A stretch of DNA of 64,000 nucleotides, from NCBI GenBank assembly GCA_000002435.2, contig CM018793.1. One strand, 5' to 3'. The translations under genes were made by a program, and so were the position numbers. Origin of the DNA: Giardia intestinalis. Taxonomy: Eukaryota. Below are positions 13,842 through 57,300 of the stretch, piece after piece. The number at the start of each line of letters is the position of its first letter. Position 1 is the first letter of the stretch. The notes under the pieces were generated by a model. It ran no database searches. It was not told the DNA's origin and worked only from the letters and a program-made list of their open reading frames with translations.

Positions 13842-13950
13842 TTAGCACCTTGTCTTGATGTCGGTGTACCGGTTCTTTCAGAGCGGCTGCTCCAACCCAG
13901 TGCAAAAGTAGTTGGGCTTTAAAAAGTTTAATTACTCTTCCAGGCGCGCG

Positions 13951-14529: not shown

Positions 14530-14928
14530 ATTATTTTGACTGTTCATTGACCAAAAGATTAATCGATCGACAGTCATGAAGCAGGCGATAGTGGGATTTG
14601 CTTTAGCTACTTTAACTGTTGTCAGCGCTAAAACATCGGAGACTCCTGTAAGCTAACTCGAGACGCTCACGGCTTTAAAGCAATAGATGCACGAGTGCTC
14701 TGTAGTACTCTGCAATACTGGACTGTTTTCTATATTTTAGCAGGCCGTCTGCGCTGGTTGGTAGTGCGAGTTCTGTGCCCAGTGCCCGCCCCAGCACCTA
14801 GGTGCGGCGCGATCTGATGAGAGTAGAAACAAGGCAGAGACAAGTAGTTGGGCAAGATGTGCATCAAGTACTTGAGCTAGTAACAACTGAAGGGGGTATT
14901 TTGCTGAAGCAGAGTAGGTAGATCAGCG

Positions 14929-15510: not shown

Positions 15511-15540
15511 AAAGAACGCAGATTGGGGTGCAGAAGGTAC

Positions 15541-17247: not shown

Positions 17248-17286
17248 ATGCAGCTGTTCCAACGAGATAATTTTTTAAAATTTTAC

Positions 17287-24690: not shown

Positions 24691-24749
24691 AGACCTACCC
24701 AAATAATTTACAAGGGTGAGCTAGGTAGAGAGTTAATTCTCTTGAGATT

Positions 24750-37100: not shown

Positions 37101-37264
37101 CAGCTCAGCGTGGTTCTGTGTCCGCAATTCGCTTTTTGGTCGACAGTGAAGCACAGTTCCGAGACCACCATGGTCTAAGTGCCCTAGACTATGCACAGAA
37201 ATGCTTCAATCAAACAGCACGAGCAACCTGCATTACTATTCTTCAGAAGCATATTCATTCATAG
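34178..37264 (+). CDS. Ankyrin / coiled-coil / ankyrin protein (Protein 21.1 / GASP-180-like family), 1,028 aa
   Basis: 'MPQVLSAQDWFLAVDSKNHAG' plus N-terminal ANK repeats, a long heptad coiled coil (aa ~380-700), and C-terminal ANK repeats (TALMLAVQYGRQ..., TALMLAAQRGS...). ATG at 34178 after 'caaaatttctaaattttaac'. Confidence 0.85.
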   Translation: MPQVLSAQDWFLAVDSKNHAGIREGLRRFAGIRDELGDTALMHAARSGDLAAVKILVDYENSLLNSVQQTALIQAILQEQVNVVRFLRPYESHINTSDNRTPFMVAASAGCSQSLAILTHYFDLSTNPNGLTALDYAVLGNNLGCTKIIIETQDVTLDQVDYALQLSESQHNRELCMYLSSVKQYIKQKLQGRGVSGRKQLFCIPTNELQEMGTVLDKVVKTRVESARRPSSAKASLTVHVPRSRALDSSADPPQPTLSALQTTRNSSKIRLPVVGPSLTHGKSGSVAKFLPSVVPSSAVSSFLQAQAQAQTQLVGSGVNASLLSSSSGGKRSSRPSSARAASRPGSAQKSHSVHKKTKEHRESSSRHKYDSTHSRDYRESDAMTLITSLNKELSVKTYENLQLEKENEDLKKTIAILRSSGHSSDEMTSQMDALKRQLERQDRIILELEASNKSLMLSQKHDESVVNPPDHMGVLKDEFRQQCLAIHEKIIEISQILTTRRQDLAALYSSASGLTVDSLSTDTPISASKANLVPLTDNLLSMSSSLLQALGLKSNDRASFGNAPAEAHTAEESHATSSTMEPNLSQNQQLSSLTAENQELKTRCIELLESLTMAQSEVARLSSLQADNDVTQISELVDMKNSQIGELRKRNEALESTTAEVQNLYNELKERYMHETAEHNTLKKLHEVTERELEETRKALAGKNTTINSLIKRMATLRAEAEATGASATHQGHGVSGLTDCSLDHIFYESSLATDALSTENNQQPQSTSYTNVPIEFQSKPEQDAPAVYLRTGNSNVAEAYEHAPIECQSPVKPEGQHQKLTGSPFPLETEHCHSVTTEVTPLMKAIVEGNARGVGSSLKYLQKTLPDGTTALMLAVQYGRQSFIKYLLEKEARMHRSDGVTALQLAVESGNVLAITALEDYEAPPLPDVPTDDGRYTELMQAIEENRLLDAWSLSRVQAGLRDPLGRTALMLAAQRGSVSAIRFLVDSEAQFRDHHGLSALDYAQKCFNQTARATCITILQKHIHS

Positions 37265-37555
37265 GCATAACTTTCCAGTTTTATTTCGGGCTTCGCTTAT
37301 GTCTTGAAGGCTTCATTTTTACATATTACATTAAACGTATCGGATTGGATAATTTATTAAAAGTTTAAATTGCTATCTGTGCCCGCATCCTGTGTAATGT
37401 AGAATTATCGTTATACTGATTGCTTAGGGATGAAGACCTGCAGGTGCTCAGATCCCATATTTTGGTGAATACGTTTGGAGAAAAGCCTACCTAGGAGCTG
37501 TTGTAGACATGTAAATTCTACCTCAAAAAAGAGCTCATTACTCAGTGGGATTTGG

Positions 37556-40357: not shown

Positions 40358-40427
40358 CTGCATGCATAATTTTAGAGTTTCCCGCGTTAAAAAATCCATT
40401 AAATTCCGCCAATGTGGAAAATTTAAA

Positions 40428-42872
40428 ATGTTCAAGATCAAGGACTCCGACAGCTGGTTTTCTGCGGTCTCCGAAGGGAAGGCGAAGCTCGTTGCAGCGT
40501 CGGCCAAGTCCTTCAAGGGTTTTCGTAATGAGAACCAAGAAACTGCTCTCATCCTAGCAGCGAAGCTCAACCATCCGGATATTGTTGAAGCCTTAGCTGT
40601 GCACGAGGCGAGGCACACAGACAGCAATGGATATACTGCGCTTATGTGGGCAGCTAAGAACGGAGACGCCAGAATGGTCCGGGCCCTCATTAATAGCGAG
40701 CGTGATATTGTCTTGCCCGATGGGCGTGATGCGCTATCCTTGGCTGCAGAGGCGGGAAATTTGGAAACCACAAATGCCCTTGTCCCCTTCTTCGAGCTCG
40801 CTAGGCCTTCTACTGGACTTTCGGCTCTTGACTATGCGGCCCGTGCAAACCATGGAGAAGTAGTTAAGGCGCTCATTGCAGAGTTCGATCCGGCTGTGCA
40901 CGTACTCGAAGCAGCACTTCGGCAGGCAGAGATTATGAACCACGGGGAGCTAGCGTCCTACCTTAGGAGTGTTGTTGACTCTAAAGCAGATGGAGTTTCC
41001 CCCATAGGCTCCGCGGGTAGTAATTTTGTCTCTCGCCTAGCAACTCCGAATACTCATTCGCCGTGTGCTAGTGTTGTTCCTTTACAGACACACGCAAGCT
41101 ATGCAGACTGCGAACGGATGGCGGCCTATGCGCACAAGCTTGAGGATGAACTTAGGGAGGAGCGCAGTAAGACGCATATCGATGCTAACCGCATTCTAGG
41201 TAAGTCATACACCGACGAGGATCTTCGCATGTACATTGCGACAATGGAGGCCAAATTGGAAGCATCGGATCGTGAGCGTGTAAAGCTGCACGCAGAGATC
41301 ATGGAGCTTCGTCGGCACTACGGAGATTCGAAGAAGGCTGGTGCAGGTGATATGAATGTGGTTTCTCGTTCTCTAACCGAGCTTCAAAAGCTTAGAAAAG
41401 AAAACTCTGACCTTCAGGATGTTATCAAGAGCCAGACTAGCCGCATAAATGGTTTGGTTGCAACTAGCAAGCGTCAGAGTGAGTTGTTGCGTAGCATTAA
41501 CAAGTCTGGTGCTGATGGAGATAGCGCAATGGGGGCGACCAAGAGTATGCGTGAGTTACATAGTCTGGAGGAAAAGTTGCAGGAAACGGACACACAGTAT
41601 ACAAAACTAAGGAAAGAGCATGGGCGTTTGCGTGGAGAGCATGAAGATCTTAAGGAAAAGTACGAGGAGGCTTGCAAAATGCTGGCCACCAAAGAAAATG
41701 GCGAAGATGCAGTAAAGACCCTGAATGCGATGGAGTCTAAGTCAAGGGCGGAGCGTCAGAGAATGAATGACACGAAAATGATGTCGCACCGAAATAGAAG
41801 TAGCGCTAGCCCGAGCCATCGTGCTTGTGCTGAGCCTAAGAGCATAATTGAATCTCCCAAACGTGGTAGTTCTTATGGAACGATGGGACCGCCTAGACGC
41901 ACCGTTAGCAGGCTGACTGAGCAGAACATTCCTGTAATTGCGCCATCTAGTGGGGATGCAGATAGTTTCGCTGCCGCATTTGATAACACGTTGTCGAAGA
42001 CTCCAAAGGACTCCACTTATAAAACAGCCGGAACATATCAGGCGATAAAGAGTTCCAAGGAAAAAGACAAGGAAATTGCCCAACTTAAGGATGAGCTTTT
42101 TAATTGCTATTCTGCAGACGAGGTTGAAAAGCTGCACCGTGTAATTGAACTCCGTGAGGCTCAACTCGCAGATGTTACAAAGGAGCGTGATGCCTTAGGT
42201 GCTTACCTGGATCGTTACAACACGTCGCAGTATAATGCGCAACAGGTGGCAGACGAGAACGACCACTTGAAGCGAAGGATTGCTGCACGCGACGAGGCCA
42301 TCCATAAGATGACACGTGAGCTTTGTACCGTGGCGCGTGCCTCTAGATCAACCATGGAGTCCAAATTGCAGGAAAAGGACCAAGAAATTGCACGACTTAA
42401 TGAGAAGATTACTGCCTTACATGATGATTATATGCGTTTGAAGAATGACCCCAATATTCCGCAGCAGACCGCGCTCGGGATCGAGTCCCGGGAGAAGTAC
42501 CTCCGGATGATCGCAGACACGGAGCAGCAGAATCACGTCTACCGGAAGCTCATCCAGGACCAGCAGGCGCAGATCGGCATGCTGGTCGCGCAGCTGGGGG
42601 CGGCCGAGAGCCAGGCGCAAGCCCTCGCTGCTGACGGGCTTCGGGGGTCGGCAACCTGGGCCCCCAGCGAGGCGCAGCCAGCTCTGGGGCCGTTCCCGCA
42701 GTGCCCGCCCCAGTCCTCTGCCCGCAGCCCTCTGGATGCCCGTCTGCAGGACGTCGAGATCCTCGAGCGGGAGCAGATGGCGGCACAAAGCGGCGCAAAG
42801 GCAGCCTCTGACCGTCCCTGGACACCACCGAGCGCAGAGGGCTGTGCGCGGCCCGCAAGCTCATACTCATAA
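40428..42872 (+). CDS. Ankyrin plus coiled-coil protein; the last ~137 codons lie inside the left inverted repeat
   Basis: 'MFKIKDSDSWFSAVSEGKA' follows the canonical 'ggaaaatttaaaATG' (the ORF-track start at 40362 is only 5 nt after the previous stop). N-terminal ANK repeats, then coiled coil. The sequence shifts abruptly to GC-rich at 42462, the repeat boundary, and the frame continues as ...QQTALGIESREKYLRMIADTEQQNHVYRK...ASSYS*. Confidence 0.8.
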   Translation: MFKIKDSDSWFSAVSEGKAKLVAASAKSFKGFRNENQETALILAAKLNHPDIVEALAVHEARHTDSNGYTALMWAAKNGDARMVRALINSERDIVLPDGRDALSLAAEAGNLETTNALVPFFELARPSTGLSALDYAARANHGEVVKALIAEFDPAVHVLEAALRQAEIMNHGELASYLRSVVDSKADGVSPIGSAGSNFVSRLATPNTHSPCASVVPLQTHASYADCERMAAYAHKLEDELREERSKTHIDANRILGKSYTDEDLRMYIATMEAKLEASDRERVKLHAEIMELRRHYGDSKKAGAGDMNVVSRSLTELQKLRKENSDLQDVIKSQTSRINGLVATSKRQSELLRSINKSGADGDSAMGATKSMRELHSLEEKLQETDTQYTKLRKEHGRLRGEHEDLKEKYEEACKMLATKENGEDAVKTLNAMESKSRAERQRMNDTKMMSHRNRSSASPSHRACAEPKSIIESPKRGSSYGTMGPPRRTVSRLTEQNIPVIAPSSGDADSFAAAFDNTLSKTPKDSTYKTAGTYQAIKSSKEKDKEIAQLKDELFNCYSADEVEKLHRVIELREAQLADVTKERDALGAYLDRYNTSQYNAQQVADENDHLKRRIAARDEAIHKMTRELCTVARASRSTMESKLQEKDQEIARLNEKITALHDDYMRLKNDPNIPQQTALGIESREKYLRMIADTEQQNHVYRKLIQDQQAQIGMLVAQLGAAESQAQALAADGLRGSATWAPSEAQPALGPFPQCPPQSSARSPLDARLQDVEILEREQMAAQSGAKAASDRPWTPPSAEGCARPASSYS

Positions 42873-44797
42873 GTAAACACTTCTGTAAGTACTTCTGATA
42901 AAAAGAATTAAAATATAAATATATCTGGCGCGCCCCCAGTCCGGCGTAGTATAACGGCTAGAATGGTTGGTTCTCACCCAACAGATCCGGGTTCGATTCC
43001 CGGCGCCGGAGCGTTTCCCGCCTTCCTTCGTCTTAGCATACGCCGCCCCACGGTGGGCCCAGACCCTAAGTATCGATTTGCAAAGACAGCTGACCGGACT
43101 GTCGCACAAGTAAGTAAGCTCGTGATCTGCAGCCAGTGATGATGCATCCATATTTAGTGAACAATAAACCAATTCCTAGAACTCCGGAATATAACTGGCT
43201 GTACTATGAGCCGACACAAGCCTTGAAGATAGATCTGCCACAACGTAATTAACTCTGCGCTGGGCGCCAAAGGTAGCCAGTCTATAGTGAGCTAGGCTCC
43301 ACAGGTCACATTTAGTATTGCATGCATGAAACGTGCTACTCCTCTACACGGCAAGTATAGCTTGTGAAAGAATGCACACTTGATTCTCGGTGTCTAGCTG
43401 CAAAGGTGATACATCTTTTAATGCATAGATGAATGGGTTTTTTGTAGCTCAGATAAAAAAGGTAGAATGGGCATTGGAAGAGCAAAACTCTAGAAGATAG
43501 GTTGGCATTCATTAAAAGGTAAGCTTCGAAGTGCACAAGTCTTTCAACCACATTCTCACTTTTAGTTTGAAGATTGTTCCACCTCATACAATCGGATTCT
43601 TTTGCAATCGCTGAAATTGTCATACCATCTCTTTCTAATTCTAACTTAATAGGAAACGCAACTACAAAGCCATTGGTTAATGGCCAACGTCACTATCATT
43701 ACATGAGCTATTAACTACTCATCTCACCATCTTTGTACTATGTTTAGCTTATCTTTTCGAAGAAGACTAGCCCGAGGTCAAATCTCTATAGCACCAGCTG
43801 GGCGTACCTCATAGGTATGCAGATTACTAGAAGTATACATTAATACTATGCTTAGTTTCCCCTTTAGTTATATTATTTACCTACATAGTAGAGAGATTGT
43901 AAATCGCTCGGAAGAAGAGTGAACTTCTAAAACAAATACTTAGTAGAATAAGATATGCGACACTACTGTTAGCTGTAGCGTCTACCGCAAAAGCGCCGGC
44001 CCAACGAATCTTTCTACAGTGGCGCGCAAAGTGTACTCGCGCACGCTACTGTCCTGACCTAGACATGGGACAGAAAATAGCCACTGATAAGAATTTATAC
44101 CTAACAAGATTTAGAGCGGTTTCAGTCGAATACTAATAAAGCGGAACCATTTATCTAGTCTAACTAGGGTAAGAATAGGTCCCGATTGTTCCAGTTTCAC
44201 AGAAACAGGAACGTAGATCTGCTCAAGCTGTCAATGGCCGGAGCCCGCTGGCCTGAGATTTATGCTTGGATGCCATCAAACTAAATGTGAGCCCGATGGT
44301 CCCGCCTACAAGAACGGTCACGCCAAGGGTGATCCCTGTGATCGCGCCTGGGCCGAGGCGGCGCTTGACCGACGAGCCTCCGCAGTAGTTCTCCAGGGGG
44401 AGGTTTCCGTCCGCACAACGGAGGCAGAGGACGGCGCCTGACCCTGCCTGCGCCTGGCAGAGCCCGCACCCGTGGATGCCTGCCATCCGAAGCCCCTGGG
44501 GCGCCGTCTGGTCGCAGGGCACACAGTCCCGGGGGCCTCCGAGGGGCGTCGCCTGGAAGTACCTGTCGGCACAGGCCAGACAGCTGGCTGCCGACGAGCA
44601 GGCGGCGCACGGAGAGGGGCATGCCAGGCAGCGGTCGCCCGCCAGGTGCCAGCCCCTCTTGCAGGAGGTGCAGACACCCCCGTCGCAACGGGCGCAACCG
44701 GCCGCGGTGCACGGGCTGCACGAGCCCCCGGAGAGCCCGTAGCCTTCCGCGCAGGCGTGGCACGTGACCCCCGCCCTTGCCCGGTCTGCCGCGCACA
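42462..44797. repeat. Left arm of a 2,336-bp inverted repeat (partner at 52022-54357)
   Basis: Reverse-complement identity with 52022-54357 runs the whole length as far as I can read it, and every translated ORF I compared is identical between the arms. The outer boundary maps to 42462 / 54357 (ccgCAGCAGACC versus tcaCAGCAGACC). The inner boundary maps to 44797 / 52022. Contents: 3' end of gene 40428-42872, tRNA-Glu, 1.2 kb of AT-rich non-coding DNA, 3' end of the HCMP gene. Confidence 0.85.
42940..43011 (+). tRNA. tRNA-Glu (anticodon CUC)
   Basis: 72-nt cloverleaf. Acceptor stem tccggcg / cgccgga, fully paired. Anticodon stem gttgg / ccaac with loop ttCTCac. T-arm ccggg-ttcgatt-cccgg. Overall very similar to eukaryotic tRNA-Glu (same T-arm, CTCAC loop). 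Confidence 0.85.
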
Positions 44798-47700
44798 CGG
44801 CACAGTGTGGAATTCCCGTGAAACCGTTCTGGCTTGTCACATCATCGCACGGGCGGCAATCGGACGGAGCAGAGACAGAGCTCTGCGTCGAGTAGTATCC
44901 CTGGCTGCACGCGCTGCATGTGGTGGCAGATGTGCAGCGGAGGCAACCAGGCGCGCAGGGGATGCATTCGCTGCCGCTTGTCCAGAAGCCCTCTGTCGGA
45001 CAGTCGCGGGGGCACAGGAGCATCCCGTCCAGAGTCAGCGCCTTGCGTCCACTCTCGCACGCCAGACAGACGACCGGGCCCACGCGATCAGCGAGGCGGC
45101 ACCTCTGGCAGCCGTCGACCCCTGTCCATCCTCCGCCTGCCCCCGCGTCGTTGCACAGCAGGCACCTGCTGGCGCTGGAGTGGGTCGGCCTGACCTCGAC
45201 GGCATTCTCGTTGCATCCTATGCACGCTATACTTTGCTCCCTACAGAGGCATTGCGGAGGGCAGATCTTGGGGACGCACTCTTCGCCGTTCCAGATGTGC
45301 TCTGGGACGCAGCTGGTGCATCTCGTGCTTGTACACGTTGCACAGTTGTCGATCGCGCACGGGATGCAGCTGTCAGCGGCCTCGTAGTACGTCATTGGAC
45401 AGACTGCATGGCAGGTCACCTCTGTCCCGGTCGAGAGCGCCTTGTAGCCCGGGAGACAGTCCTTGCACAGTGCGGGGCCCGCTACCTTCGGAGCCTCACA
45501 GAGCCTGCAGCCACTCACTCCCACCCAGCTGTCCCTGCCAGACGTGTCCGAGCAGGCAAGACAGGCTCCCAGGCCAGGCGTGGTGAACGTGCCAAAGTAT
45601 CCCTCGGCGCACTCTTTGCATTTATCAGCCCCCATACCATCGCACGTCTTGCACGCTGGGTGGCACGCAATGCAGGACGTGCTCTGGAGATAGTATCCGG
45701 CCCTGCAAGCAGTGCACGTGTTGGGGTCGTCTACGCACGCGCCGCAGTTGGGATCGGAGCAGCGCACGCAGCCCTTATCTGTCTTGGAAAAGCCTGCCTT
45801 GCATGCAGTGCACCCGGACGTCGACTCCGTGGTGTCTCCACAAATGCTCGTCCCCGGCGCCCTTTCCTTTGTGTAGCAGGCGCCCTCGAAGAGGAACATC
45901 CCGTCTCCGCAGTGCGAGCACACGCCCTTGCTGCAGATAAGTCCCTCCTTCGGCTCTGCGCACGTGCCATCCAGAGGAACCTCTCCGTCGATCAGGCAGC
46001 GCCCGCAGACGACCTGGCCGTCGACGACCACTGCATCGCGCTCATCGCAGATACCCGTGCCGGGGTACTCGCCTGCGGAGTAGCAGCCCCCCTGGTGGAG
46101 GAAGTAGCTCCCTCGGCACGCGGTGCAGCGGCCCTTCTTGGCGTCCTTTACGCATGGACCGGCAAGTGAGCGAGCTTCTCCAGGATAGAGTGTGCAGACG
46201 CCGTCGATCGGCACATAATCACTCGACGCGCACTGCGAGCACAGAGACCCGTCCATGACTGTGCAGGAGCCCCAACTGCAAGCGTCCTGCCCCACTCTTT
46301 TGCAGGGCTTCGTGCAGTATGCCCCGGCCCCGACGCCTGTCAGCGTGTAGGGCTGAATGCATTCTGTGCAGTACTTCACGTCTATCTCGCAGCTGGCGCA
46401 GTTGGAGACGGCGCAGGACATGCACGTCAGCGTCTCCTTGTTGTGACGGTAGCCGGGTCTGCACCGCCGACAGGTTCCGGCATCGCGGCCTGTTCCAAGG
46501 ACTTCGCAAATCCCACTTCCAGGAGTAGTCGTGATATCATAGCAGCCTCCCTCGTGGAAGAAGTAGTTCTCGGGACATATGACGCATAAACCGCTGGAGC
46601 ACGAGACACCATCTGGCACATCCTTTGTACACAGGCCATTTATTGGAAACTCTCCTGCAAGATTGCACTGCTTGCAATATGTGCGCCTTCCGACTGTCAG
46701 AAGCTCCCTACAAATGCCAGACCCGGGAATCGCGGCAGGGTCATAGCACCCGCCCATGTAGAGCATGTATCCGCGTAGGCACCCTGTGCAGACGCCCTTC
46801 CCCTTCTCGCAAACATAGTCTGTGTCATGCCCCGTGCAAGCCCCGTTGATCGGCCACTCGTCATCCAGCGCACACCTGGAACAGTACAGCGAGCCCATCG
46901 CCGTACAGCTGCCAGCCTTACAGTTACCAGACTCTGATCTACTGTCGTTGCAGCTTTGGATACACCGCGAGCCGTCCTCGCTAGGAATGTGCTTGTCCTT
47001 GCATCGCGTGCAGATGACCCTCTTTGGTGTCTCGCTTGGATAGCACTCTGTGCAGCCGTCAACGCCCGTGTATCCATTTGTTGCACCTGTATCATTACAT
47101 AGGATGCAGGACTCCTTTGTGGGATCGAGCAGGTCTGTGCTGTAGTACCCGGAGGCACACGATGTGCACACCCCTGCAACCGCTGAGTCGACGGCCACCG
47201 CGCAGACCACCGTTCCAGGCGAGCGTCCTATCTCGTAGCACCCCCCGGCGTGCAGGAAGAACCTTGGCCCGCAGCGTGTGCACGACGTGGGGCTTGGTGT
47301 GGCAGCGACACATTGCGATCTGATTGCCCTAGTGTTAGCCAATGCAACGCACGAGCCGTCGATCGGGACTTCCCCGTCTCGCTTGCATTGCTTGCAGATC
47401 GTGTACGGGCCCAGCGTAGCCTGGTGCTGGCTGTCACATATGGCAGTCCCAGCTGTTGCGCCTTTAGCATAGCAGCCCCCATAGTAGAGGAGGTGCGTGT
47501 CCTTGCAAGCCGCACACGTCCCGCTGGATGGGGTTGTACGGATGCAAGCGTCGTCATTTGCCTTGCACTTTCCGTCGATGATAACGCTGCTTAATAGCGC
47601 ACAGCGGCTGCATGCGAGCGTGCCGTTGACATTGCAGTATCCTGCAGCACAGGACGTGGGAAGCAATCCAACGGGGCATTCCTCAGTACATATGTTATTC

Positions 47701-50700
47701 CTCAGTGCAAATCTATCCTTGCAGACCTTACACCCAGTACTATCGCACTTCTTACACCCGGGTGTGCATGCAACACACGAGTTCCCACTGGCATAGTACC
47801 CATCCTGGCAAGAGGCGCAGGTATTTGCCGCATCGCACGTCAAGCAGTGGAGCACGCTGCAAGCAACACACTTTCCGGCCGCAAGATAGAAGCCGTCTGC
47901 GCATCCCGTGCATTTTGTTGCACTATCCTGGCACGTCTTGCAGCTCTTATCACACATCTGACAGAACTCAGCAGACTCATACATCCCATCCGGACACTTA
48001 GTAAAGCATGCAACCGTTGCAGGACTTCCATCCTTGGTTATCTGGAATGACTTAACACCCTGTTTGCACGACCTGCAGATGCCATCTCCCTTGACGGTGC
48101 AGTCATCCGAGACCTTGCACTCCCCATCAACGGGCACCTCATCCTTCTGCTTACACTTCGCACAAAACGACCCTGCGCCCGATGTCACGACATCCTGGGC
48201 GTCGCAGATGTCCCCCGCCTCGAACGACCCCGCTTCATAGCAGCCACCCTTGTACTTGATGTATCTGTGGGTGCAGTATTTGCAGGTGCCATTAGCTTGT
48301 TTATATTGTATGCACACGCCTGCGGCCACTGAAGCACACACGCCGTTGACTGGGCCCTCGGCGTCAGCAGCGCACTGGGAGCAGTAGAACGTGCCCAGGA
48401 CATCACACTTGTCCTTTCTGCACCTGTGCTCCTTGGGGTCTGCCTCTGCCTCAACGCACGTTTGCACGCACTCCGTTCCCCCGTTCATTGGTCTGTAGAA
48501 CTGCTCGCAGGCAACACAGACCAGGAGTCCGTTGGAAACCTTGCAGCTCTTGCAGTGGGGTATGCCCTTCAGCGTGTCGCTGTTCTCTGTGCACGGAACA
48601 CACGAGTCGCTGATACTTGAGCGGTCGGGGGGCGCGTAGTATCCCTCTTTACAAATATCACAGATCCCATTGTCAGATCCGATGCTTTTGCATAGTATAG
48701 TTCCGGGAGCAAGGTCTGCTGAGACACAACTCCCTTTAAGCAGAAAATGATTGTCAACACAATAATAACATCGTCCAGTAGGCACACGGGCCAAAACGCA
48801 CGGAGAAAGCTTGCTGTCAGACATAGGAATGCAGTGCCCATTAACTGGCAGATCAGATAAAATGCTACATCGGAAGCAATACGTCACGCCATCCATTACA
48901 GCATACTCGCCACAAATGGCGTTTCCTGGATAGGTCTTTGGATTATAGCAACCATTCTTATAATAAAAGAATAATCCTGCGCATCCAGTGCATGTACCAT
49001 TTGGCACACCCGACTTCTTACATATATTCTCCTTATCGACACTAGTACATTTGCCATCGATAAGAGCATCTGTATTCAACGCGCACTTTGAACAAAAGGT
49101 AGCTCCAAGCACATTACAAAAATCAACGGCACACTGACCTGATCTAGGTTGTAGCGAGTCAGTCGGGAGAGGGCAGCTTTCCTCGCATACACCGTTAACC
49201 AATAAATAGCGATCTAGACAGCTTGTGCAGTGTCCTGGACCAGAGATTAGGGGAGCTAAACACGTTCTACAAAAAGCTATACCGGTGTAGCCGAAAATTC
49301 CACCTACATCGCTACAGTGAATGCACGATTGAATCGTTGAGCTTCGAACAGGATTGAGATAATAAGTTGGTCCACATACTTCGCAAACGCCTGCTCTTGC
49401 TTTAGTGCATATCTGTGGATAAAATTCTGGTGTAAAGCAAACTGTACGGTGCAAGAAATATCCAGCTCCACAACCAGTGCACACTCCCTCTTTGCACGTA
49501 TTTCCATAAGTTTCGGTGGTGCAAGATCCGTTAATAGGATATTCTGTTTCGAGAGTGCATTTCTTACAATATGTAAATCCATAACCTGTAAGTGTGTGTT
49601 CCTTTTCACATATCGGTATTACTGGCTTAATCGTATTGTAACATCCACCGTAGTAGAGAAGATAGCCTTTTGAGCATCTCCGGCATCTACCGCCCTCCAT
49701 AACAGCACACTCGGGAGCATCTTCCCGTAGAGGCCGGCAAACCCCATCTATGGGAACCTCACGTTCTATACTACACCTTTCGCAGAATGTCTTATCACGA
49801 ACAACACATCCTCCGTAAATGCAGCCCCCAGGCGTGAGTTCCTCCGTGCAAGCTTTAACACATGAGTCCTTACCTTCATTCTTTTGAAGCTGATAACTAT
49901 AAGCGCAACTATTGCAAACGTCCACGCCCCCATCACAGTTTACGCAGTACTTGATGTTACATGGTCTGCATTCTGATCCAACATGGGTATATCCAGAGGC
50001 ACAAACTGAACAAGTAGCTGTGTCGTCGACATCCTTACAAATACTGAGGCCGATGGGCGTTCCTTTTTCATAGCATCCTCCTTTGTAAGGAAAATACCGA
50101 GGTGGACACTCTGTGCAGCGGCCAGATACTACTTTGGCGCCCATTAAGGCAGATGTGCACTGTCCATTTATGGGGCACTCATTATCATTTGCGCAACAAG
50201 AACAAAGTGCAGACGAGAAAATGTTGCAATGATCAGACTTACATGACCCCGGAGCAAGACCGTTTGTCCAGCACGATATTTCGCAGTGATTTTCTGTTAG
50301 GAGATATCCCCTTTCGCAGACTGTGCATTGCGCTCGTTGGCCTCGTGGAAGAGGTAAGCATTTTGCACAGTGAGCTATGCCAGCGTTATCGTACTGAAGA
50401 AGTACATCATTACAATACTTGCACATACCTTTCCCCATCGAAAACACTTGAAAGAATATTTCTGGAGCACAAGAAGTACAATCATTCGCGTTAGGACCAA
50501 GGCATGAAGCACAATTTGAATGGCATGGAATACAATCTCCTCTGTTGCGAAAATAGTTGTCTACACACGCTTTGCATTTCCCAGCATTATCCACCTCGTT
50601 ACATATGACGTTTCCTGGAGCAGATTCTGGGGAATAACATCCACCTTGGTAAATGAAGTAATTCTTACCACAAGAGGTACACTTAATAGAGACAGGTGTT

Positions 50701-51812
50701 GGTAGACCGCCGGCTGAATCTCGACAACCAGAAGTTACAACTAGCGGATTATTGTATGGCACACATACTCCGTTGATTGGAACGAAACCAGGCGTACCAC
50801 ATTTCGCACAAAAGGTTGCACCCCTAATATCAGTAGTGTAGGCACATGCCTTAAGTCCTAGCTCAGTATCCACACGATAACATCCGCCTTGAAAAAGGAT
50901 GTATCCCTTTCCACAGTTATCACACATTCCCAACGAGATGGATATATGGAGACAAATATTCTGGTCATTAGAAGTGCAAACTCCGTTAATCGGTACTTCG
51001 GTGCCAAGAGAACAGTGGGCACAGAGTTTGTTCTCAAAAGCAGTACATCCATCTTCAGCACACTTTCCAGACTTGGCTATTTTACTTTTATCACAAGTGA
51101 GAATACATGTACGAGTCTGTGAATCATATGAATAGTTATCAATACAAAGAAGACACTCATTAGGCGTTGCACCCGTACACATCAAGCAATTGCTAGGGCA
51201 AGTAAGACACTGATTTCCAGCCAAATAATATTGTGCTTGACAAGAGAGGCATTTCAAAGAATCACTGGTACTCATTGTACAAGAGCGACAATTTTCTATA
51301 CCGTAAGGTTTATCTGAACACCTTTTACAGAGAGACCCATCAAGAAAACGATCCGGAGGACAACTCAGGCACTGATTTTCAGAACTTCCAGAACAAGAAC
51401 TGCAGTGAGCATGACAGGTCTTACAAGTCTGAGGAGTTGCTTGAGTGTCGAGATAGTAACCTAAAGAGCATATTTTGCAAAGATTCCTGGCTAGATCAAC
51501 GCAAATAAGATTTCCAGGACTATAAAGTATATTGTAACACCCGCCCTCATGAATGAAATAATTCTTTTCTACACATGAAGAACAGGTTTTAGCAGAGTTT
51601 TTAAGAGGCTTACCTGCCTCAGAAGCGCAGCCGGAGGCCACAGCCCTGGGGTCGTCGTACGGGATACAGAGTCCGTTTATAGGAACCTCACCAGGGGTGG
51701 CACACTCAGAACAATACCGGCCCTCTAAAATAGTGCATTTTCCTATAGCGCACTCTCCAGGTCGATTCCCATGGGTACATGAGAGTGCAAGTCCAAAAAT
51801 GATCGCCAGCAT
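44223..51812 (-). CDS. High-cysteine membrane protein (HCMP, VSP-like), 2,529 aa. The 3' 575 nt lie in the left inverted repeat.
   Basis: Signal peptide 'MLAIIFGLALSCTHG'. Hundreds of CXXC / CXC motifs. A recurring 'GGCY' motif (YQGGCY, FQGGCY, LYYGGCY, ...). A single C-terminal TM 'ITGITLGVTVLVGGTIGLTFSLMA' with a short tail 'SKHKSQASGLRPLTA'. This is HCMP-like rather than VSP-like because there is no CRGKA ending. ATG at 51812 with AT-rich upstream. Stop TGA at 44223-44225. Composition switches from AT-rich codons (5' ~3.1 kb) to very GC-rich (3' ~4.4 kb) near 48650. Confidence 0.9.
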   Translation of the reverse strand: MLAIIFGLALSCTHGNRPGECAIGKCTILEGRYCSECATPGEVPINGLCIPYDDPRAVASGCASEAGKPLKNSAKTCSSCVEKNYFIHEGGCYNILYSPGNLICVDLARNLCKICSLGYYLDTQATPQTCKTCHAHCSSCSGSSENQCLSCPPDRFLDGSLCKRCSDKPYGIENCRSCTMSTSDSLKCLSCQAQYYLAGNQCLTCPSNCLMCTGATPNECLLCIDNYSYDSQTRTCILTCDKSKIAKSGKCAEDGCTAFENKLCAHCSLGTEVPINGVCTSNDQNICLHISISLGMCDNCGKGYILFQGGCYRVDTELGLKACAYTTDIRGATFCAKCGTPGFVPINGVCVPYNNPLVVTSGCRDSAGGLPTPVSIKCTSCGKNYFIYQGGCYSPESAPGNVICNEVDNAGKCKACVDNYFRNRGDCIPCHSNCASCLGPNANDCTSCAPEIFFQVFSMGKGMCKYCNDVLLQYDNAGIAHCAKCLPLPRGQRAQCTVCERGYLLTENHCEISCWTNGLAPGSCKSDHCNIFSSALCSCCANDNECPINGQCTSALMGAKVVSGRCTECPPRYFPYKGGCYEKGTPIGLSICKDVDDTATCSVCASGYTHVGSECRPCNIKYCVNCDGGVDVCNSCAYSYQLQKNEGKDSCVKACTEELTPGGCIYGGCVVRDKTFCERCSIEREVPIDGVCRPLREDAPECAVMEGGRCRRCSKGYLLYYGGCYNTIKPVIPICEKEHTLTGYGFTYCKKCTLETEYPINGSCTTETYGNTCKEGVCTGCGAGYFLHRTVCFTPEFYPQICTKARAGVCEVCGPTYYLNPVRSSTIQSCIHCSDVGGIFGYTGIAFCRTCLAPLISGPGHCTSCLDRYLLVNGVCEESCPLPTDSLQPRSGQCAVDFCNVLGATFCSKCALNTDALIDGKCTSVDKENICKKSGVPNGTCTGCAGLFFYYKNGCYNPKTYPGNAICGEYAVMDGVTYCFRCSILSDLPVNGHCIPMSDSKLSPCVLARVPTGRCYYCVDNHFLLKGSCVSADLAPGTILCKSIGSDNGICDICKEGYYAPPDRSSISDSCVPCTENSDTLKGIPHCKSCKVSNGLLVCVACEQFYRPMNGGTECVQTCVEAEADPKEHRCRKDKCDVLGTFYCSQCAADAEGPVNGVCASVAAGVCIQYKQANGTCKYCTHRYIKYKGGCYEAGSFEAGDICDAQDVVTSGAGSFCAKCKQKDEVPVDGECKVSDDCTVKGDGICRSCKQGVKSFQITKDGSPATVACFTKCPDGMYESAEFCQMCDKSCKTCQDSATKCTGCADGFYLAAGKCVACSVLHCLTCDAANTCASCQDGYYASGNSCVACTPGCKKCDSTGCKVCKDRFALRNNICTEECPVGLLPTSCAAGYCNVNGTLACSRCALLSSVIIDGKCKANDDACIRTTPSSGTCAACKDTHLLYYGGCYAKGATAGTAICDSQHQATLGPYTICKQCKRDGEVPIDGSCVALANTRAIRSQCVAATPSPTSCTRCGPRFFLHAGGCYEIGRSPGTVVCAVAVDSAVAGVCTSCASGYYSTDLLDPTKESCILCNDTGATNGYTGVDGCTECYPSETPKRVICTRCKDKHIPSEDGSRCIQSCNDSRSESGNCKAGSCTAMGSLYCSRCALDDEWPINGACTGHDTDYVCEKGKGVCTGCLRGYMLYMGGCYDPAAIPGSGICRELLTVGRRTYCKQCNLAGEFPINGLCTKDVPDGVSCSSGLCVICPENYFFHEGGCYDITTTPGSGICEVLGTGRDAGTCRRCRPGYRHNKETLTCMSCAVSNCASCEIDVKYCTECIQPYTLTGVGAGAYCTKPCKRVGQDACSWGSCTVMDGSLCSQCASSDYVPIDGVCTLYPGEARSLAGPCVKDAKKGRCTACRGSYFLHQGGCYSAGEYPGTGICDERDAVVVDGQVVCGRCLIDGEVPLDGTCAEPKEGLICSKGVCSHCGDGMFLFEGACYTKERAPGTSICGDTTESTSGCTACKAGFSKTDKGCVRCSDPNCGACVDDPNTCTACRAGYYLQSTSCIACHPACKTCDGMGADKCKECAEGYFGTFTTPGLGACLACSDTSGRDSWVGVSGCRLCEAPKVAGPALCKDCLPGYKALSTGTEVTCHAVCPMTYYEAADSCIPCAIDNCATCTSTRCTSCVPEHIWNGEECVPKICPPQCLCREQSIACIGCNENAVEVRPTHSSASRCLLCNDAGAGGGWTGVDGCQRCRLADRVGPVVCLACESGRKALTLDGMLLCPRDCPTEGFWTSGSECIPCAPGCLRCTSATTCSACSQGYYSTQSSVSAPSDCRPCDDVTSQNGFTGIPHCAVCAADRARAGVTCHACAEGYGLSGGSCSPCTAAGCARCDGGVCTSCKRGWHLAGDRCLACPSPCAACSSAASCLACADRYFQATPLGGPRDCVPCDQTAPQGLRMAGIHGCGLCQAQAGSGAVLCLRCADGNLPLENYCGGSSVKRRLGPGAITGITLGVTVLVGGTIGLTFSLMASKHKSQASGLRPLTA

Positions 51813-52020
51813 GTGATGCTATTTTTACATAAACGCCTTTATACATTAGAATCACACATCATAAATTTGGCTTTTCCAGAGCTAATTTCCTATTTTTGAA
51901 TACAAAAATATATTCCCATCTTTCAATCTGGTCTATTTATCACACTACAGTAGTGTTATTTAAACGCTCGTATGTGATGCTCCTAAAGATGGTTGAATCG
52001 TGCTAATTTTGCATTGTATT

Positions 52021-52596
52021 ATGTGCGCGGCAGACCGGGCAAGGGCGGGGGTCACGTGCCACGCCTGCGCGGAAGGCTACGGGCTCTCCGGGGGCTCGTG
52101 CAGCCCGTGCACCGCGGCCGGTTGCGCCCGTTGCGACGGGGGTGTCTGCACCTCCTGCAAGAGGGGCTGGCACCTGGCGGGCGACCGCTGCCTGGCATGC
52201 CCCTCTCCGTGCGCCGCCTGCTCGTCGGCAGCCAGCTGTCTGGCCTGTGCCGACAGGTACTTCCAGGCGACGCCCCTCGGAGGCCCCCGGGACTGTGTGC
52301 CCTGCGACCAGACGGCGCCCCAGGGGCTTCGGATGGCAGGCATCCACGGGTGCGGGCTCTGCCAGGCGCAGGCAGGGTCAGGCGCCGTCCTCTGCCTCCG
52401 TTGTGCGGACGGAAACCTCCCCCTGGAGAACTACTGCGGAGGCTCGTCGGTCAAGCGCCGCCTCGGCCCAGGCGCGATCACAGGGATCACCCTTGGCGTG
52501 ACCGTTCTTGTAGGCGGGACCATCGGGCTCACATTTAGTTTGATGGCATCCAAGCATAAATCTCAGGCCAGCGGGCTCCGGCCATTGACAGCTTGA
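52021..52596 (+). pseudogene. 3' fragment of an HCMP gene (191 codons: a few CXXC repeats, a TM segment and a tail), identical to the HCMP C-terminus. It begins with an ATG placed exactly at the repeat boundary, so it could be expressed as a mini-HCMP.
   Basis: From 52022 the sequence is the reverse complement of 44223-44797. The HCMP codon gtg (V) reads atg here. Upstream is an AT-rich 'gctaattttgcattgtattATG'. The 20 nt just upstream still show weak similarity to the HCMP (LILHCIMCAADR versus GIPHCAVCAADR). That suggests a diverged HCMP copy whose 3' end was homogenised with the left copy. Confidence 0.5.
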
Positions 52597-53807
52597 GCAG
52601 ATCTACGTTCCTGTTTCTGTGAAACTGGAACAATCGGGACCTATTCTTACCCTAGTTAGACTAGATAAATGGTTCCGCTTTATTAGTATTCGACTGAAAC
52701 CGCTCTAAATCTTGTTAGGTATAAATTCTTATCAGTGGCTATTTTCTGTCCCATGTCTAGGTCAGGACAGTAGCGTGCGCGAGTACACTTTGCGCGCCAC
52801 TGTAGAAAGATTCGTTGGGCCGGCGCTTTTGCGGTAGACGCTACAGCTAACAGTAGTGTCGCATATCTTATTCTACTAAGTATTTGTTTTAGAAGTTCAC
52901 TCTTCTTCCGAGCGATTTACAATCTCTCTACTATGTAGGTAAATAATATAACTAAAGGGGAAACTAAGCATAGTATTAATGTATACTTCTAGTAATCTGC
53001 ATACCTATGAGGTACGCCCAGCTGGTGCTATAGAGATTTGACCTCGGGCTAGTCTTCTTCGAAAAGATAAGCTAAACATAGTACAAAGATGGTGAGATGA
53101 GTAGTTAATAGCTCATGTAATGATAGTGACGTTGGCCATTAACCAATGGCTTTGTAGTTGCGTTTCCTATTAAGTTAGAATTAGAAAGAGATGGTATGAC
53201 AATTTCAGCGATTGCAAAAGAATCCGATTGTATGAGGTGGAACAATCTTCAAACTAAAAGTGAGAATGTGGTTGAAAGACTTGTGCACTTCGAAGCTTAC
53301 CTTTTAATGAATGCCAACCTATCTTCTAGAGTTTTGCTCTTCCAATGCCCATTCTACCTTTTTTATCTGAGCTACAAAAAACCCATTCATCTATGCATTA
53401 AAAGATGTATCACCTTTGCAGCTAGACACCGAGAATCAAGTGTGCATTCTTTCACAAGCTATACTTGCCGTGTAGAGGAGTAGCACGTTTCATGCATGCA
53501 ATACTAAATGTGACCTGTGGAGCCTAGCTCACTATAGACTGGCTACCTTTGGCGCCCAGCGCAGAGTTAATTACGTTGTGGCAGATCTATCTTCAAGGCT
53601 TGTGTCGGCTCATAGTACAGCCAGTTATATTCCGGAGTTCTAGGAATTGGTTTATTGTTCACTAAATATGGATGCATCATCACTGGCTGCAGATCACGAG
53701 CTTACTTACTTGTGCGACAGTCCGGTCAGCTGTCTTTGCAAATCGATACTTAGGGTCTGGGCCCACCGTGGGGCGGCGTATGCTAAGACGAAGGAAGGCG
53801 GGAAACG

Positions 53808-53879
53808 CTCCGGCGCCGGGAATCGAACCCGGATCTGTTGGGTGAGAACCAACCATTCTAGCCGTTATACTACGCCGGA
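53808..53879 (-). tRNA. tRNA-Glu (anticodon CUC), second copy in the right repeat arm
   Basis: Exact reverse complement of 42940-43011. Confidence 0.85.
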
Positions 53880-53946
53880 CTGGGGGCGCGCCAGATATAT
53901 TTATATTTTAATTCTTTTTATCAGAAGTACTTACAGAAGTGTTTAC

Positions 53947-54312
53947 TTATGAGTATGAGCTTGCGGGCCGCGCACAGCCCTCTGCGCTCGGTGGTGTCCA
54001 GGGACGGTCAGAGGCTGCCTTTGCGCCGCTTTGTGCCGCCATCTGCTCCCGCTCGAGGATCTCGACGTCCTGCAGACGGGCATCCAGAGGGCTGCGGGCA
54101 GAGGACTGGGGCGGGCACTGCGGGAACGGCCCCAGAGCTGGCTGCGCCTCGCTGGGGGCCCAGGTTGCCGACCCCCGAAGCCCGTCAGCAGCGAGGGCTT
54201 GCGCCTGGCTCTCGGCCGCCCCCAGCTGCGCGACCAGCATGCCGATCTGCGCCTGCTGGTCCTGGATGAGCTTCCGGTAGACGTGATTCTGCTGCTCCGT
54301 GTCTGCGATCAT
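53947..54312 (-). pseudogene. 3' gene fragment: a copy of the last ~135 codons of the ankyrin/coiled-coil gene 40428-42872. It sits just downstream of, and out of frame with, gene 54363-59345.
   Basis: Translation 'MIADTEQQNHVYRKLIQDQQAQIG...ARPASSYS' is identical to the C-terminus of the 40428-42872 product. The TAG of the upstream gene lies 6 nt outside the repeat. Confidence 0.6.
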
Positions 54313-54362
54313 CCGGAGGTACTTCTCCCGGGACTCGATCCCGAGCGCGGTCTGCTGTGAAA

Positions 54363-57300
54363 CTACCGTGCTTTTTCGAAGGGAAGTAACAAGCGAATAA
54401 TTTCAGTTCTTTCTGCCTTTATAGCCAAATCAAGTGCAGTAGCCCCGTCAGCCCTCTCCACGCCAGATTCGTATTCTCTGAGCACACTTACGGCATTTTT
54501 GTTTCCCATTTGTGATGCGAGCATTAAGGCTGTTGTACCATCTGGCCTGACACATCCTACATGGCGCAACTGTCGCCTCAAAACTCCAATTGGTGCATTC
54601 GAAAGTACAGCTCTCATCAGAGGAGTATCATCATGGTGTTCTTTAAGTAGAGCATCGCCATAAGAATCTTCGGTCTCGATCTTATGATTCGTTGCTGTAT
54701 TAATGGAGGAAGCAATGCCAGATGAAGACTCTAGATATCCATCTAGTTTCCTATCTGCCATGAGCATTCTTAGCTTCTTATTAGTTTGAGAAAGAGCATC
54801 AAGTCTTTGTAATGCTCCATCATGCTCCTTGCTTAGCTGCTCATATGACTCCTTATACTCACTTAAATGGTTTCTAGTGGAAATAAGTTGCTGTTCGATA
54901 TCATGGACCTGCCTATTTAGAGCTGTCGTCGTTTCATCCATATGAGATTTGAGATTGATAAATGAATGCACTGTTCTATTCAGTTTATCTTGTAATTCCT
55001 GCTTCTCTGACTCTAATAGCTCAACTGTACTAGATAAATTAATATCAGGCTCGGTAGCAGTGTCTGTCTGTGTCTGCGCTATAAGTGCTGTTAATGCTAG
55101 GTTTTCGTTAGCAAGTTGAGAAGCAGATGTGCGTAACTCTAATTGCTCTCTACGAGCTACCTGAAGCTCTGATGTGATATTGGACAGTTCCCTCTCAAGT
55201 TGAAGCCCTCGGCTAGTTTCTAACTCCAGCTGCCTCTTGGCAGATTCTAATTCTATAGAAATCTCGTAATTCTTACCCTTTAGTTCATCTTTCTGTTGTT
55301 TGAGGTCCAGTAACTCTGCATTCCTCTTGTCACTTATAATGTTATCATGTTCAGTCAAAGCTATGCGCTCTTGAAGCTGATTTTCTGCCTTCCTTAGCAA
55401 TGCTGTAACGGTGCTTATTTGATTTTCCTTTGAAGCTAGCTCTTCACGAAGATACCGTATTTCGTTCTGATGAATAGATAGCTCATTCTCAGCGTTATCT
55501 ATGATATCACGTGTCGCTTCAGTTTCTAGTAATTCATGACGTAAAGAGCGATTGAGAAGTTCTGTCTGGTGCAACTTAGATTGTATAGATGCCATCTGAA
55601 TACTCAGATGTTGGACAGTTTGAACAAGTGAGTTAGGAACGGCTACTTTATCTACTTCTGTGTATTTTTGTATTGAGTTGGAAAGTGTGCGACTGAGAGA
55701 TAAATGGTTAAATGCAGAGTTTCTTGCATCTGTGCTTATATTACAAAGATCTAATGCTGAATCTTCCTCGTTTCCACCACAAATACTCTGTAGCAGCTCC
55801 GCATATTGTATCCCCGAGAGTGTTATAATAGAATCAGCAGGAGAAAGCTCCGAATAACAGTCATGTAAAGATACGTTCAGATCGCTCTTCTTTACCGTGG
55901 TTGTTTGAGAAGTGCTCCGGGGAACTATAATGTTAACAATACTCGGGTCAGCATCATATTCATTAATCTCATTCAAATTCTCTGCTTGTTGCATTATAAC
56001 ATCGCGTGCTGGCTGGTTGTCAACGTCTGCATTGGAATGCAATTTTGTTGATGTAGACTGATATATTGCTGTTTGAACAATCTTGTCGCTGAATTGTATC
56101 ACATCGTGGTTTTCTAAATTATCCACGGTTTGAGTCTCTGTTGAAATAGCATTTTGGCGTTGCAAAATGGTGCGCCGCAACTCAACTAATTGTGCATTAA
56201 CATCTAAGAGCTCATCTTGTAACTCATCATTTCGTATCTGTAATTCCTGTCTATTTTTAATTATAGAATCAGATGCATCTCTTGCACGTTGAACTTCACT
56301 TTGCAATTGCTGGATTCGAAGATCCTTTTCTTGCACTTCAAGGTTAAGCTTATGGATATGCTGTTGAAGCGTTTCTTCAGTCGTTTTGTTCGCTGACGCT
56401 AATAGCTGACCTGCTATTTGCTCATTTGCAATGGATAACTTATTCTGAAGGTCATCATTTTGAGTATTGAGGGAGTCACATAATTCCTCAAGGTAACGTA
56501 GTCGTGCAGAGGTATCAGATGTGGGCACATGTCCTTTGACATCATGTTCTTGAGATAAACTATATAGGCCTTTTGGAGCAGAGGCTATTTGGGTTTCTAG
56601 TTGTAAACTGGAAACATGAGGCTCAGGATTGGCCGATCCGGATGTATCTAGATGTACAAGTACAGATGAAAGTTGTATGGTATCTGAATCTGATATCGCA
56701 GGACGTTTGTCTGTCTGTGTAAGAGTTAGCACGTTGGCTGATTCTTCTAAATCTAAATAGTCTCGAATAATGTGTGTCGTCTGTCCATATGCATTATCTG
56801 ATCCACTAGACCTAGAGATACTTCTAGACAATATTAGGCTTTGAGCCATGATAGACCGATCAACCAGTTGACATGATTGATCCGAGATTTGTCTTAGCTT
56901 CTCTGATAGCTGCACAATCGTATCATTTGCTAACAGCAGATCGTGTTCTGCTTGGGTATTCAGAGCAATTTGTTCAGTAAGTTGAATAATTTGAACATCC
57001 TTGGCTTTAAGTAAAGGTATCATCTCCTGTAGGTTCTCTACTTCTAGCATCTTTTCTTCTAACTGTTTTTTTAAATCGACTAGGTCATCTGTCGAGTGGG
57101 CAGATGCAACAGTCTCGTATTCTGCTAATTTTGCATCTAAAATGTGAACCAGTTTGGATAGCTCATCATTCTCATCTCTCACTTGCTGTAGTTCTAACAT
57201 CACGGATTTGACATCAGTATTATCAGAAACATCAGCAAGTTTATCAGACACTGCACAATCTGGGGTACGTTGTAGCTCTTCCTCCCGACGTTTCTCTAAC

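Follow-up and report, generated by a model that had tools for sequence, protein, structure and literature searches.

How can two sequences of 2.3 kb, placed in opposite orientation several kilobases apart, remain identical to the last nucleotide? The question is raised by a 64-kb window (the whole stretch of DNA analysed, to which coordinates refer unless a contig or locus is named) from Giardia intestinalis WB (Giardia lamblia ATCC 50803), in which two inverted arms flank most of a gene for a large high cysteine membrane protein (HCMP). Direct comparison of the left arm with the reverse complement of the right arm gave 2,336 matches out of 2,336 positions and no mismatch. At all four arm edges, the adjoining 200 nt, outward and inward, are at approximately chance identity. 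A repeat search between positions 38000 and 60000 returned this inverted pair as the sole long repeat, with a length of 2,358 nt, the excess being due to an extension that tolerates a few flanking mismatches. A perfect inverted repeat of 2.3 kb cannot be attributed to chance. On its outer side the arm is bounded by the first base of codon 679 in the 814-codon gene for Protein 21.1, and the inner edge falls in codon 2339 of the 2,529 codons of the HCMP gene. An initial annotation had described two identical 2,336-bp inverted repeats with a rapid loss of similarity beyond their boundaries, one transfer RNA (tRNA) gene for Glu(CUC) in each arm, and both repeat ends inside coding sequence; all of these features hold, the tRNA genes being recovered with ARAGORN and Rfam. 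It also proposed a recent segmental duplication or gene conversion between HCMP loci, and allowed for an assembly artefact. The comparisons described here lead to a different answer: the palindrome is old and shared by distant lineages, and its arms have very probably been kept identical by arm-to-arm gene conversion.

The age of the palindrome is evident from other Giardia lineages. In P15 (assemblage E), contig ACVC01000185.1 carries an orthologue of the 1,660-aa ankyrin/coiled-coil gene that borders the right arm in WB (87% amino acid identity), followed by a 2.5-kb segment with a tRNA-Glu(CTC) (positions 15478-15550 of the retrieved locus, L032) and two orphan open reading frames (ORFs), and then by a 2,529-aa HCMP orthologue with 86% amino acid identity to that of WB and no gaps. 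After the stop codon of the 1,660-aa gene, the P15 sequence reads TAG TATCA and continues across the arm boundary as CAGTAAACTGCGCTCGGGATCG; the WB sequence reads TAG TTTCA and continues as CAGCAGACCGCGCTCGGGATCG. The P15 locus matches itself in inverted orientation (24553-24983 against 17333-16903; 429/431, 99.54%), with the match running off the retrieved sequence. The inner boundaries of P15 and WB fall in one and the same HCMP codon, no more than 3 nt apart, and the outer boundary of P15 also matches that of WB. In GS (assemblage B), the right-flank contig AHHH01000159.1 extends 1,963 bp beyond the stop codon of the 1,660-aa gene, and its positions 14990-16406 match positions 12287-13701 of the left-flank contig AHHH01000098.1 at 99.4% identity, to the contig end. 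A tRNA-Glu gene is found on both sides in GS (right-arm copy at 15207-15279 of locus L035), and its sequence is 100% conserved among WB, P15 and GS. The junction consisting of stop codon, TTTCR and arm is common to WB, an A2-like isolate, P15 and GS, and contigs from the A2-like isolate and from an independent assemblage-B isolate break at the same points. A palindrome is apparently also present in a more distant lineage (68% amino acid identity in the 1,660-aa protein), where the last 30 nt of the right-flank contig encode ...RLQSVEILE, the C-terminal motif of Protein 21.1.

Additional evidence came from comparing the arms within and between genomes. The left and right arms are 100% identical in WB, 99.5% identical in P15 (over 431 bp) and 99.4-99.6% identical in GS (over ~1,415 bp). 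Between WB and P15, identity is 80% for the whole arm and 76% for its outer and middle parts; between WB and GS, the outer and middle parts are 55% identical. Across the between-genome comparisons, identity ranges from 52 to 76% in the outer and middle part and from 82 to 90% in the HCMP part. In every comparison the arms cluster by genome and not by side, which is a pattern of concerted evolution. In the non-coding arm middle, WB and P15 share 67-78% identity, and third-codon-position identity between the same genomes is 0.75-0.77 in the single-copy 1,660-aa gene and the 5' half of the HCMP gene; the divergence of the arm middle is indistinguishable from that of third codon positions in single-copy genes. 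Three-way identity of WB, P15 and GS in the arm middle is 20-48%, and no conserved hidden gene or RNA was found in these 1.2 kb in the three-way alignment. A search of positions 42000-45000 against Rfam at a permissive threshold returned only the tRNA, two sub-threshold matches (E = 0.5-0.8) being dismissed as chance. The arm middle has nevertheless kept a similar length in assemblages A, E and B, despite its free sequence and the compact genome. Since the arms are free to change between lineages yet locked together within each, neither constraint nor a young duplication explains their identity. With these two excluded, the standard inference is that repeated non-reciprocal exchange between the arms remains, with gene conversion as its probable mechanism. 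The earlier suggestion that gene conversion is involved is supported by arms that are alike within genomes and diverged between them.

The few differences between arms of the same genome are also informative. In P15, the right-arm copy of the Protein 21.1 end is open over its 136 codons, save for a TAA at codon 2 beside the boundary; a frame that is still open is expected if this copy is continually overwritten. Differences between the P15 arms cluster at the edges: the TAA lies at 14989-14996 of L032 (read in the right arm, so that the difference is presumed), and the two mismatches actually measured are no more than 10 nt from the inner edge (17324-17333). These edge differences look like erosion where conversion tracts seldom reach. 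In GS, the arms differ by six mismatches, all of them transitions, and one 2-bp indel, all in the non-coding middle (positions 12621-13525 of locus L031 against L035), with the left arm carrying the G/C allele at five of the six mismatches. Conversion may be rarer in the middle, the composition of the middle may be constrained, or the differences may be allelic.

Evidence linking the repeat to base composition came from a shift in one of its boundaries. The arm starts at window position 42462 in assemblages A and E and at the equivalent of 42723, ~258 bp further in, in assemblage B; in the distant lineage it starts ~15 nt further in than in B. The junction on the side of the 1,660-aa gene is constant across lineages. 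In the 675 codons of the Protein 21.1 gene upstream of the repeat, GC content at third codon positions (GC3) is 0.50 in WB and 0.47 in GS. In WB, GC3 is 0.38 in codons 649-677, just outside the repeat, and 0.93 in codons 678-706, just inside. In GS, it is 0.52-0.69 in codons up to 761, which are outside the GS repeat, and 0.93-1.00 from codon 762 onward, inside it. The 87 codons that lie between the A/E and B boundaries have a GC3 of 0.885 in WB, 0.83 in P15 and 0.61 in GS, the difference between WB and GS being significant (Fisher p = 4e-5). The steps at the lineage-specific boundaries have p values from 4e-5 to 7e-7, and the non-coding arm middle has no GC excess. The jump in GC3 at each lineage's own boundary thus appears to point to GC-biased conversion in the coding ends of the arms. 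Given that GC3 of the inter-boundary codons in GS is not significantly different from the GS upstream background (p = 0.17), an expansion of the repeat in A/E followed by a rise in GC is favoured, and expansion in the A/E lineage is the most likely origin of the ~258-bp shift. Genes in Giardia gene-conversion tracts were reported to be GC-enriched in a 2025 study (PMC12669663).

The HCMP gene provides a further example. Davids 2006 (PMC1762436) listed three TMK-like ORFs, and the HCMP at this locus shares 74-75% identity with XP_001708230 and XP_001710289, which both bear the name "HCMP TMK-like"; its Pfam VSP matches extend over 17 stretches. By these similarities it belongs to the three-gene TMK-like group of large Cys-rich type-I membrane proteins with VSP-type CXXC repeats. 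GC3 of the HCMP gene is ~0.35 in codons 1-1020, ~0.7 from codon 1080 (the step lies near 48570-48750), and 0.81-0.87 in the part inside the arm. At exactly this place the two WB paralogues, which lie on other chromosomes, go from 35-60% to 95-100% amino acid identity. In the last 29 residues, identity to the paralogues falls to ~50% again, so that the homogenised region runs from codon ~1060 to codon ~2500. The comparison at the DNA level was made on a P15 paralogue (ACVC01000054.1, positions 13064-17545 of locus L037) in place of the WB paralogues, an exact-product look-up of paralogue P0044 having returned no record. In a homologue search with the HCMP at E <= 1e-100, the paralogue cluster P0032 was the sole return, and the syntenic P15 protein was not among the matches. 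This copy is 97.3% identical to the syntenic P15 HCMP gene (L032, 20583-24983) at the nucleotide level over 4.4 kb, and both P15 copies are only ~86% identical to WB. As judged from these alignments, the 3' halves of the TMK-like HCMP genes are subject to inter-chromosomal concerted evolution, and the edge of the homogenised region shows a second, independent case in which conversion is linked to raised GC3. Gene conversion between HCMP loci, as initially proposed, is therefore real among the three TMK-like paralogues, in their 3' 4.4 kb, but it is not the cause of arm identity. It was rejected as such a cause because the paralogue locus of P15 lacks both an inverted repeat and a tRNA, with similarity ending 69 nt before the stop codon.

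The features of the locus are listed in the table below. The final 136 codons of the Protein 21.1 gene and the final 191 codons of the HCMP gene, the latter ending in ...GLRPLTA, lie inside the left arm. The GS orthologue of Protein 21.1 is ~83% identical throughout the C-terminal 136 aa encoded by the arm, and the HCMP ORF is continuous into the left arm, so the left arm contains the functional 3' ends and the right arm contains orphan fragments, as first annotated. The orphan 191-aa ORF is identical to HCMP residues 2339-2529 at 190 of 191 residues, with its ATG spanning the arm boundary, and the orphan Protein 21.1 end is out of frame with the upstream 1,660-aa gene. ARAGORN finds exactly two tRNA genes in the 64-kb window, both tRNA-Glu(CTC) and at mirror positions, and tRNA-Glu(CUC) is the only whole gene that is truly duplicated. 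HCMP coding sequence accounts for 7,015 of the 7,224 bp of the spacer. If the right arm is taken out, 214 bp separate the stop codon of the 1,660-aa gene from the HCMP ATG, a normal spacing for Giardia. Genes of the "Protein 21.1" type, with ankyrin repeats and a coiled coil, stand three in a row to the left of the palindrome, from position 34178, with a fourth to the right (all within 34178-42872 on the plus strand and 54363-59345 on the minus strand), and their order around the palindrome is the same in P15 and GS. Long antisense ORFs were also seen (565 aa at 44472-46169 on the plus strand and 106-123 aa at 42417-42880 on the minus strand), and the P15 annotation has a 121-aa ORF at the equivalent right-arm position. 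The ORFs of at least 100 aa on both strands at 42417-42880 and 44281-46169 were set aside as artefacts of GC composition, stop codons being scarce in GC-rich DNA.

Table. Coordinates of the palindrome and of the genes and segments associated with it
Feature	Coordinates	Strand	Description
Left arm	42462..44797		2,336 bp; authentic 3' ends of two convergent genes, tRNA-Glu, 1.2-kb non-coding middle
Right arm	52022..54357		2,336 bp; orphan copies of both gene 3' ends and second tRNA-Glu
Unique spacer	44798..52021		7,224 bp; HCMP codons 1-2338 and 209-bp HCMP upstream region
HCMP upstream region	51813-52021		209 bp; AT-rich, GC 0.31
Non-coding arm middle	43013..44222; mirror copy 52597-53806		1.2 kb; GC 0.42
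Segment in repeat of assemblages A and E, outside repeat of B	42462..42722; mirror 54097-54357		261 nt
Protein 21.1 / "Ankyrin repeat protein 1"	40428..42872	+	814 aa, XP_001709281; Pfam ankyrin matches, coiled coil
TMK-like HCMP	44223..51812	-	2,529 aa, Cys-rich; Pfam VSP, E=2e-171
tRNA-Glu(CUC), left copy	42940..43012	+	ARAGORN; Rfam RF00005, 56.4 bits
tRNA-Glu(CUC), right copy	53807..53879	-	ARAGORN
Orphan HCMP 3' end	52021..52596	+	Annotated 191-aa "High cysteine membrane protein", XP_001709275.1 / KAE8305132.1
Orphan Protein 21.1 3' end	53947..54357	-	Codons 679-814 and stop; mirror of 42462-42872
1,660-aa ankyrin/coiled-coil gene	54363..59345	-	Stop codon 5 nt from right arm

Several points weigh against an old palindrome maintained by GC-biased conversion. 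The mechanism of conversion is deduced from the pattern of arm identity. The left arm was compared over 431 bp in P15 and ~1.4 kb in GS, so that full-length identity in these genomes is an extrapolation, and the palindrome of the distant lineage is read from a contig tail of 30 nt. Which way the boundary moved depends on the rooting of the tree. The six differences between the GS arms could reflect allelic heterozygosity or 454 sequencing errors. With respect to base composition, the GC content of the arm middle is close to that of other intergenic DNA of the window (0.43), and P15 and GS have the same U-shaped GC profile across the arm. An AT-rich middle is not expected from GC-biased conversion that acts uniformly along the arm, and a GC bias is therefore an incomplete account of these profiles.

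One alternative is that the palindrome is kept by selection, as a functional module. It could act as a switch, with flip-flop inversion of the spacer turning the HCMP gene around with respect to its neighbours in a subset of the four genome copies, or as a source of hairpin or antisense RNA feeding Giardia RNA interference, with 0.4-2.3 kb of double-stranded RNA (dsRNA) available to Dicer and Argonaute. Read-through from the 1,660-aa gene across the right arm would produce an antisense transcript of the HCMP 3' end, and an antisense transcript of the Protein 21.1 3' end would come from plus-strand transcription starting in the divergent HCMP upstream region. If so, dsRNA from right-arm read-through or divergent transcription would tune the expression of the TMK-like HCMP and of Protein 21.1. 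Retention of the repeat across deeply diverged lineages in a compact genome, the maintained length of an unconstrained middle, and a geometry that permits both inversion and dsRNA formation are all consistent with this model. However, persistence needs no function, because recombination between inverted repeats inverts the intervening DNA and does not delete it, and conversion renews the homology. The spacer has the same orientation in WB and P15, the sole two assemblies that resolve it, and its inversion, as noted in the initial annotation, follows from the geometry as coding-neutral, leaving the protein unchanged. Moreover, the arms contain no conserved element beyond the tRNA and the two coding ends. 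A selected function is therefore considered unlikely.

The recent segmental duplication proposed initially is taken here as an event in the lineage of WB (assemblage A1) that left the arms no time to diverge. The lack of mismatches over 2,336 bp and the sharp edges are what a young duplication would look like when a single genome is considered. This proposal does not survive comparison across isolates and assemblages, which places the palindrome in P15, GS and apparently the more distant lineage. P15 and GS have the same right-flank junction as WB, the inner boundary, readable in P15 but not in GS, agrees with that of WB, and the A2-like right-flank contig breaks at the same point. The arms are 10-48% diverged between genomes, and with a nucleotide divergence of 20-45%, contamination of the P15 and GS assemblies by WB, or scaffolding on it, is impossible. 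A recent duplication is accordingly very improbable.

If the palindrome is not recent in WB, it could still have arisen more than once, by independent parallel duplications in the separate lineages, with a recurrent fragile site close to the tRNA gene as one conceivable cause. In yeast, tRNA genes are replication-fork barriers, and the outer boundary differs by 258 bp between A/E and B and by a further ~15 nt in the distant lineage. Nevertheless, the insertion point, 5 nt beyond the stop codon with TTTCR between, is the same in WB, the A2-like isolate, P15 and GS, the inner boundaries of WB and P15 agree to within 3 nt in the same HCMP codon, and arm GC3 has had time to reach ~0.9 in all lineages, a level that speaks for a long stay within the repeat. 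Repeated origins are thus hardly credible. No microhomology or target-site duplication was found at the four junctions, the flanks (...ATTCCG on one side and TGAAAC... on the other) being without a common direct repeat. A composite transposon was also considered and rejected, as the spacer encodes only the HCMP and no mobility gene, target-site duplication is absent, and synteny of the locus is kept across three assemblages.

Whether the repeat is real can be judged from short-read assemblies of public runs, all of them ~100% identical to the window. In at least 20 read sets the contigs of the right flank stop at 54328, and in 5 read sets those of the left flank stop at 42491, in both cases after entering the arm by 30 nt. 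SRR10368402 yielded the arm by itself, as a contig of exactly 2,336 bp, and all ten of the arm contigs retrieved begin exactly at the inner boundary. The assemblies were presumably made with k = 31, such that 30 nt equals k-1, and the contigs behave as a true repeat with two contexts predicts. The short-read graphs are identical for both orientations of the spacer. Contigs from SRR10919353 and SRR10662870 read through the left junction, and strains without the duplication were considered as the source; this was rejected because the contigs are 100% identical to the window and one graph path gives the same read-through. The tRNA-Glu gene or its immediate border (42932-43019 / 53800-53887) is where most of the short-read arm contigs break off, and some add 15-25 nt unlike the window, implying further copies of tRNA-Glu(CUC) elsewhere in the genome. 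While chimeric long reads can create perfect long inverted repeats, and the exact HCMP product is without a record in the gene index searched, a false duplication or mis-join in the reference, the artefact initially allowed for, has next to no probability, as the repeat is supported by over 20 read sets obtained independently and by three genomes that were each assembled on their own. Coming from either outer flank, De Bruijn contigs of many separate Illumina runs halt 30 nt inside the arm, and the stand-alone 2,336-bp contig branches at each end. The orphan ORF of 191 aa had been annotated already in the earliest WB assembly (XP_001709275.1) and reappears in the chromosome-scale assembly (KAE8305132.1), and in P15 one contig runs from the right arm through the spacer into the beginning of the left arm.

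An old palindrome with arms homogenised by conversion has parallels in other systems. The palindromes P1-P8 of the primate Y chromosome are reportedly maintained by gene conversion, as Rozen and colleagues are said to have described in 2003. As in those palindromes, the arms at the Giardia locus are closer to each other than to the orthologous arms of other lineages, they enclose a unique spacer, and they have persisted over a long evolutionary time; a GC bias of arm-to-arm conversion is reported for the Y palindromes. Important differences are the size of the arms (2.3 kb here, from 9 kb to 1.45 Mb on the Y), the setting in a tetraploid protist with no known meiosis in this sub-assemblage, the content of the arms, which is gene fragments and a tRNA in place of testis gene families, and a GC effect that is limited to the coding arm ends. 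There are also parallels with the inverted repeat of plastids, for which Goulding and colleagues reportedly described an "ebb and flow" of boundaries in 1996. In both cases, the arms are homogenised by conversion, the boundaries lie inside genes and leave a truncated gene copy in one arm, the boundaries shift between lineages, and flip-flop isomers are possible. Unlike the plastid repeat, the Giardia palindrome lies on a linear nuclear chromosome and has far smaller arms, and its flip-flop is a geometric possibility.

Closer to hand are the inverted vsp pairs of Giardia. Adam et al. (2010, BMC Genomics 11:424; PMC2996952) described 14 identical inverted vsp pairs in WB with abrupt points of divergence. 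According to the passages on these pairs, they too consist of identical inverted copies a few kb apart, with near-identity continuing into the flanks up to an abrupt edge, and they too cause premature contig ends (PMC2996952). As portrayed there, each vsp arm contains a complete vsp ORF (with the C-terminal CRGKA), whereas the arms described here contain the 3' ends of two unrelated genes and a complete tRNA gene. By the same account, 2-4 kb of non-coding sequence separate the vsp copies, whereas the 7,224-bp spacer here is the body of the HCMP gene, and, unlike in the vsp pairs, one arm completes the HCMP gene while the other is an orphan. Cross-assemblage conservation of the vsp pairs and effects on composition are not mentioned in these passages of PMC2996952. 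The homogenisation of the TMK-like HCMP genes (family: PMC1762436) is similar in that conversion lifts identity within a genome (95-100% at the amino acid level in WB, 97.3% at the nucleotide level in P15) above the ~85% seen between assemblages, in that GC3 is raised, and in that the same HCMP gene is involved. It differs in acting between chromosomes, over codons ~1060-2500, and in stopping 69 nt before the stop codon, such that the tRNA and the Protein 21.1 end are excluded.

These observations are best explained by the following history. An inverted copy of ~2.1-2.3 kb was inserted before assemblages A, E and B diverged, and probably also before the divergence of a C/D-like lineage. The copied segment would have extended from the 3' end of the Protein 21.1 gene through the tRNA-Glu(CUC) gene and the 1.2-kb intergenic region to the 3' end of the TMK-like HCMP gene, and the copy would have been placed so that the stop codon of the 1,660-aa gene lay on one side of it and the HCMP promoter on the other. 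Afterwards, repeated non-reciprocal conversion between the arms would have kept them ~99.5-100% identical within each genome while they diverged between genomes, with a probable GC bias in the coding arm ends. The outer boundary moved by ~258 bp between A/E and B, most probably through expansion of the repeat in A/E. The right-arm fragments, including the 191-aa "HCMP", would be by-products that stay intact only through overwriting from, or with, the functional copies in the left arm.

A literature search found no published description of the palindrome locus. What appeared to be a young duplication or an artefact becomes a dated, cross-assemblage case of concerted evolution in Giardia. For annotation, this means that XP_001709275.1 / KAE8305132.1 should be treated as a gene fragment maintained by conversion and not as an independent member of the HCMP family. 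Short-read variant calls and expression counts over the arms are intrinsically ambiguous, including those for the arm-encoded ends of Protein 21.1 (136 codons) and of the HCMP (191 codons). The boundary that differs between A/E and B, together with the GC3 step at each position, constitutes a natural experiment that ties base composition to conversion within the genome. Whether Giardia recombines or has sex is debated, and sub-assemblage AI has been argued to be asexual, with gene conversion as its only exchange process (PMC12669663). Whatever the function of the palindrome, the locus would be a calibrated natural reporter of mitotic GC-biased conversion in a putatively asexual eukaryote.

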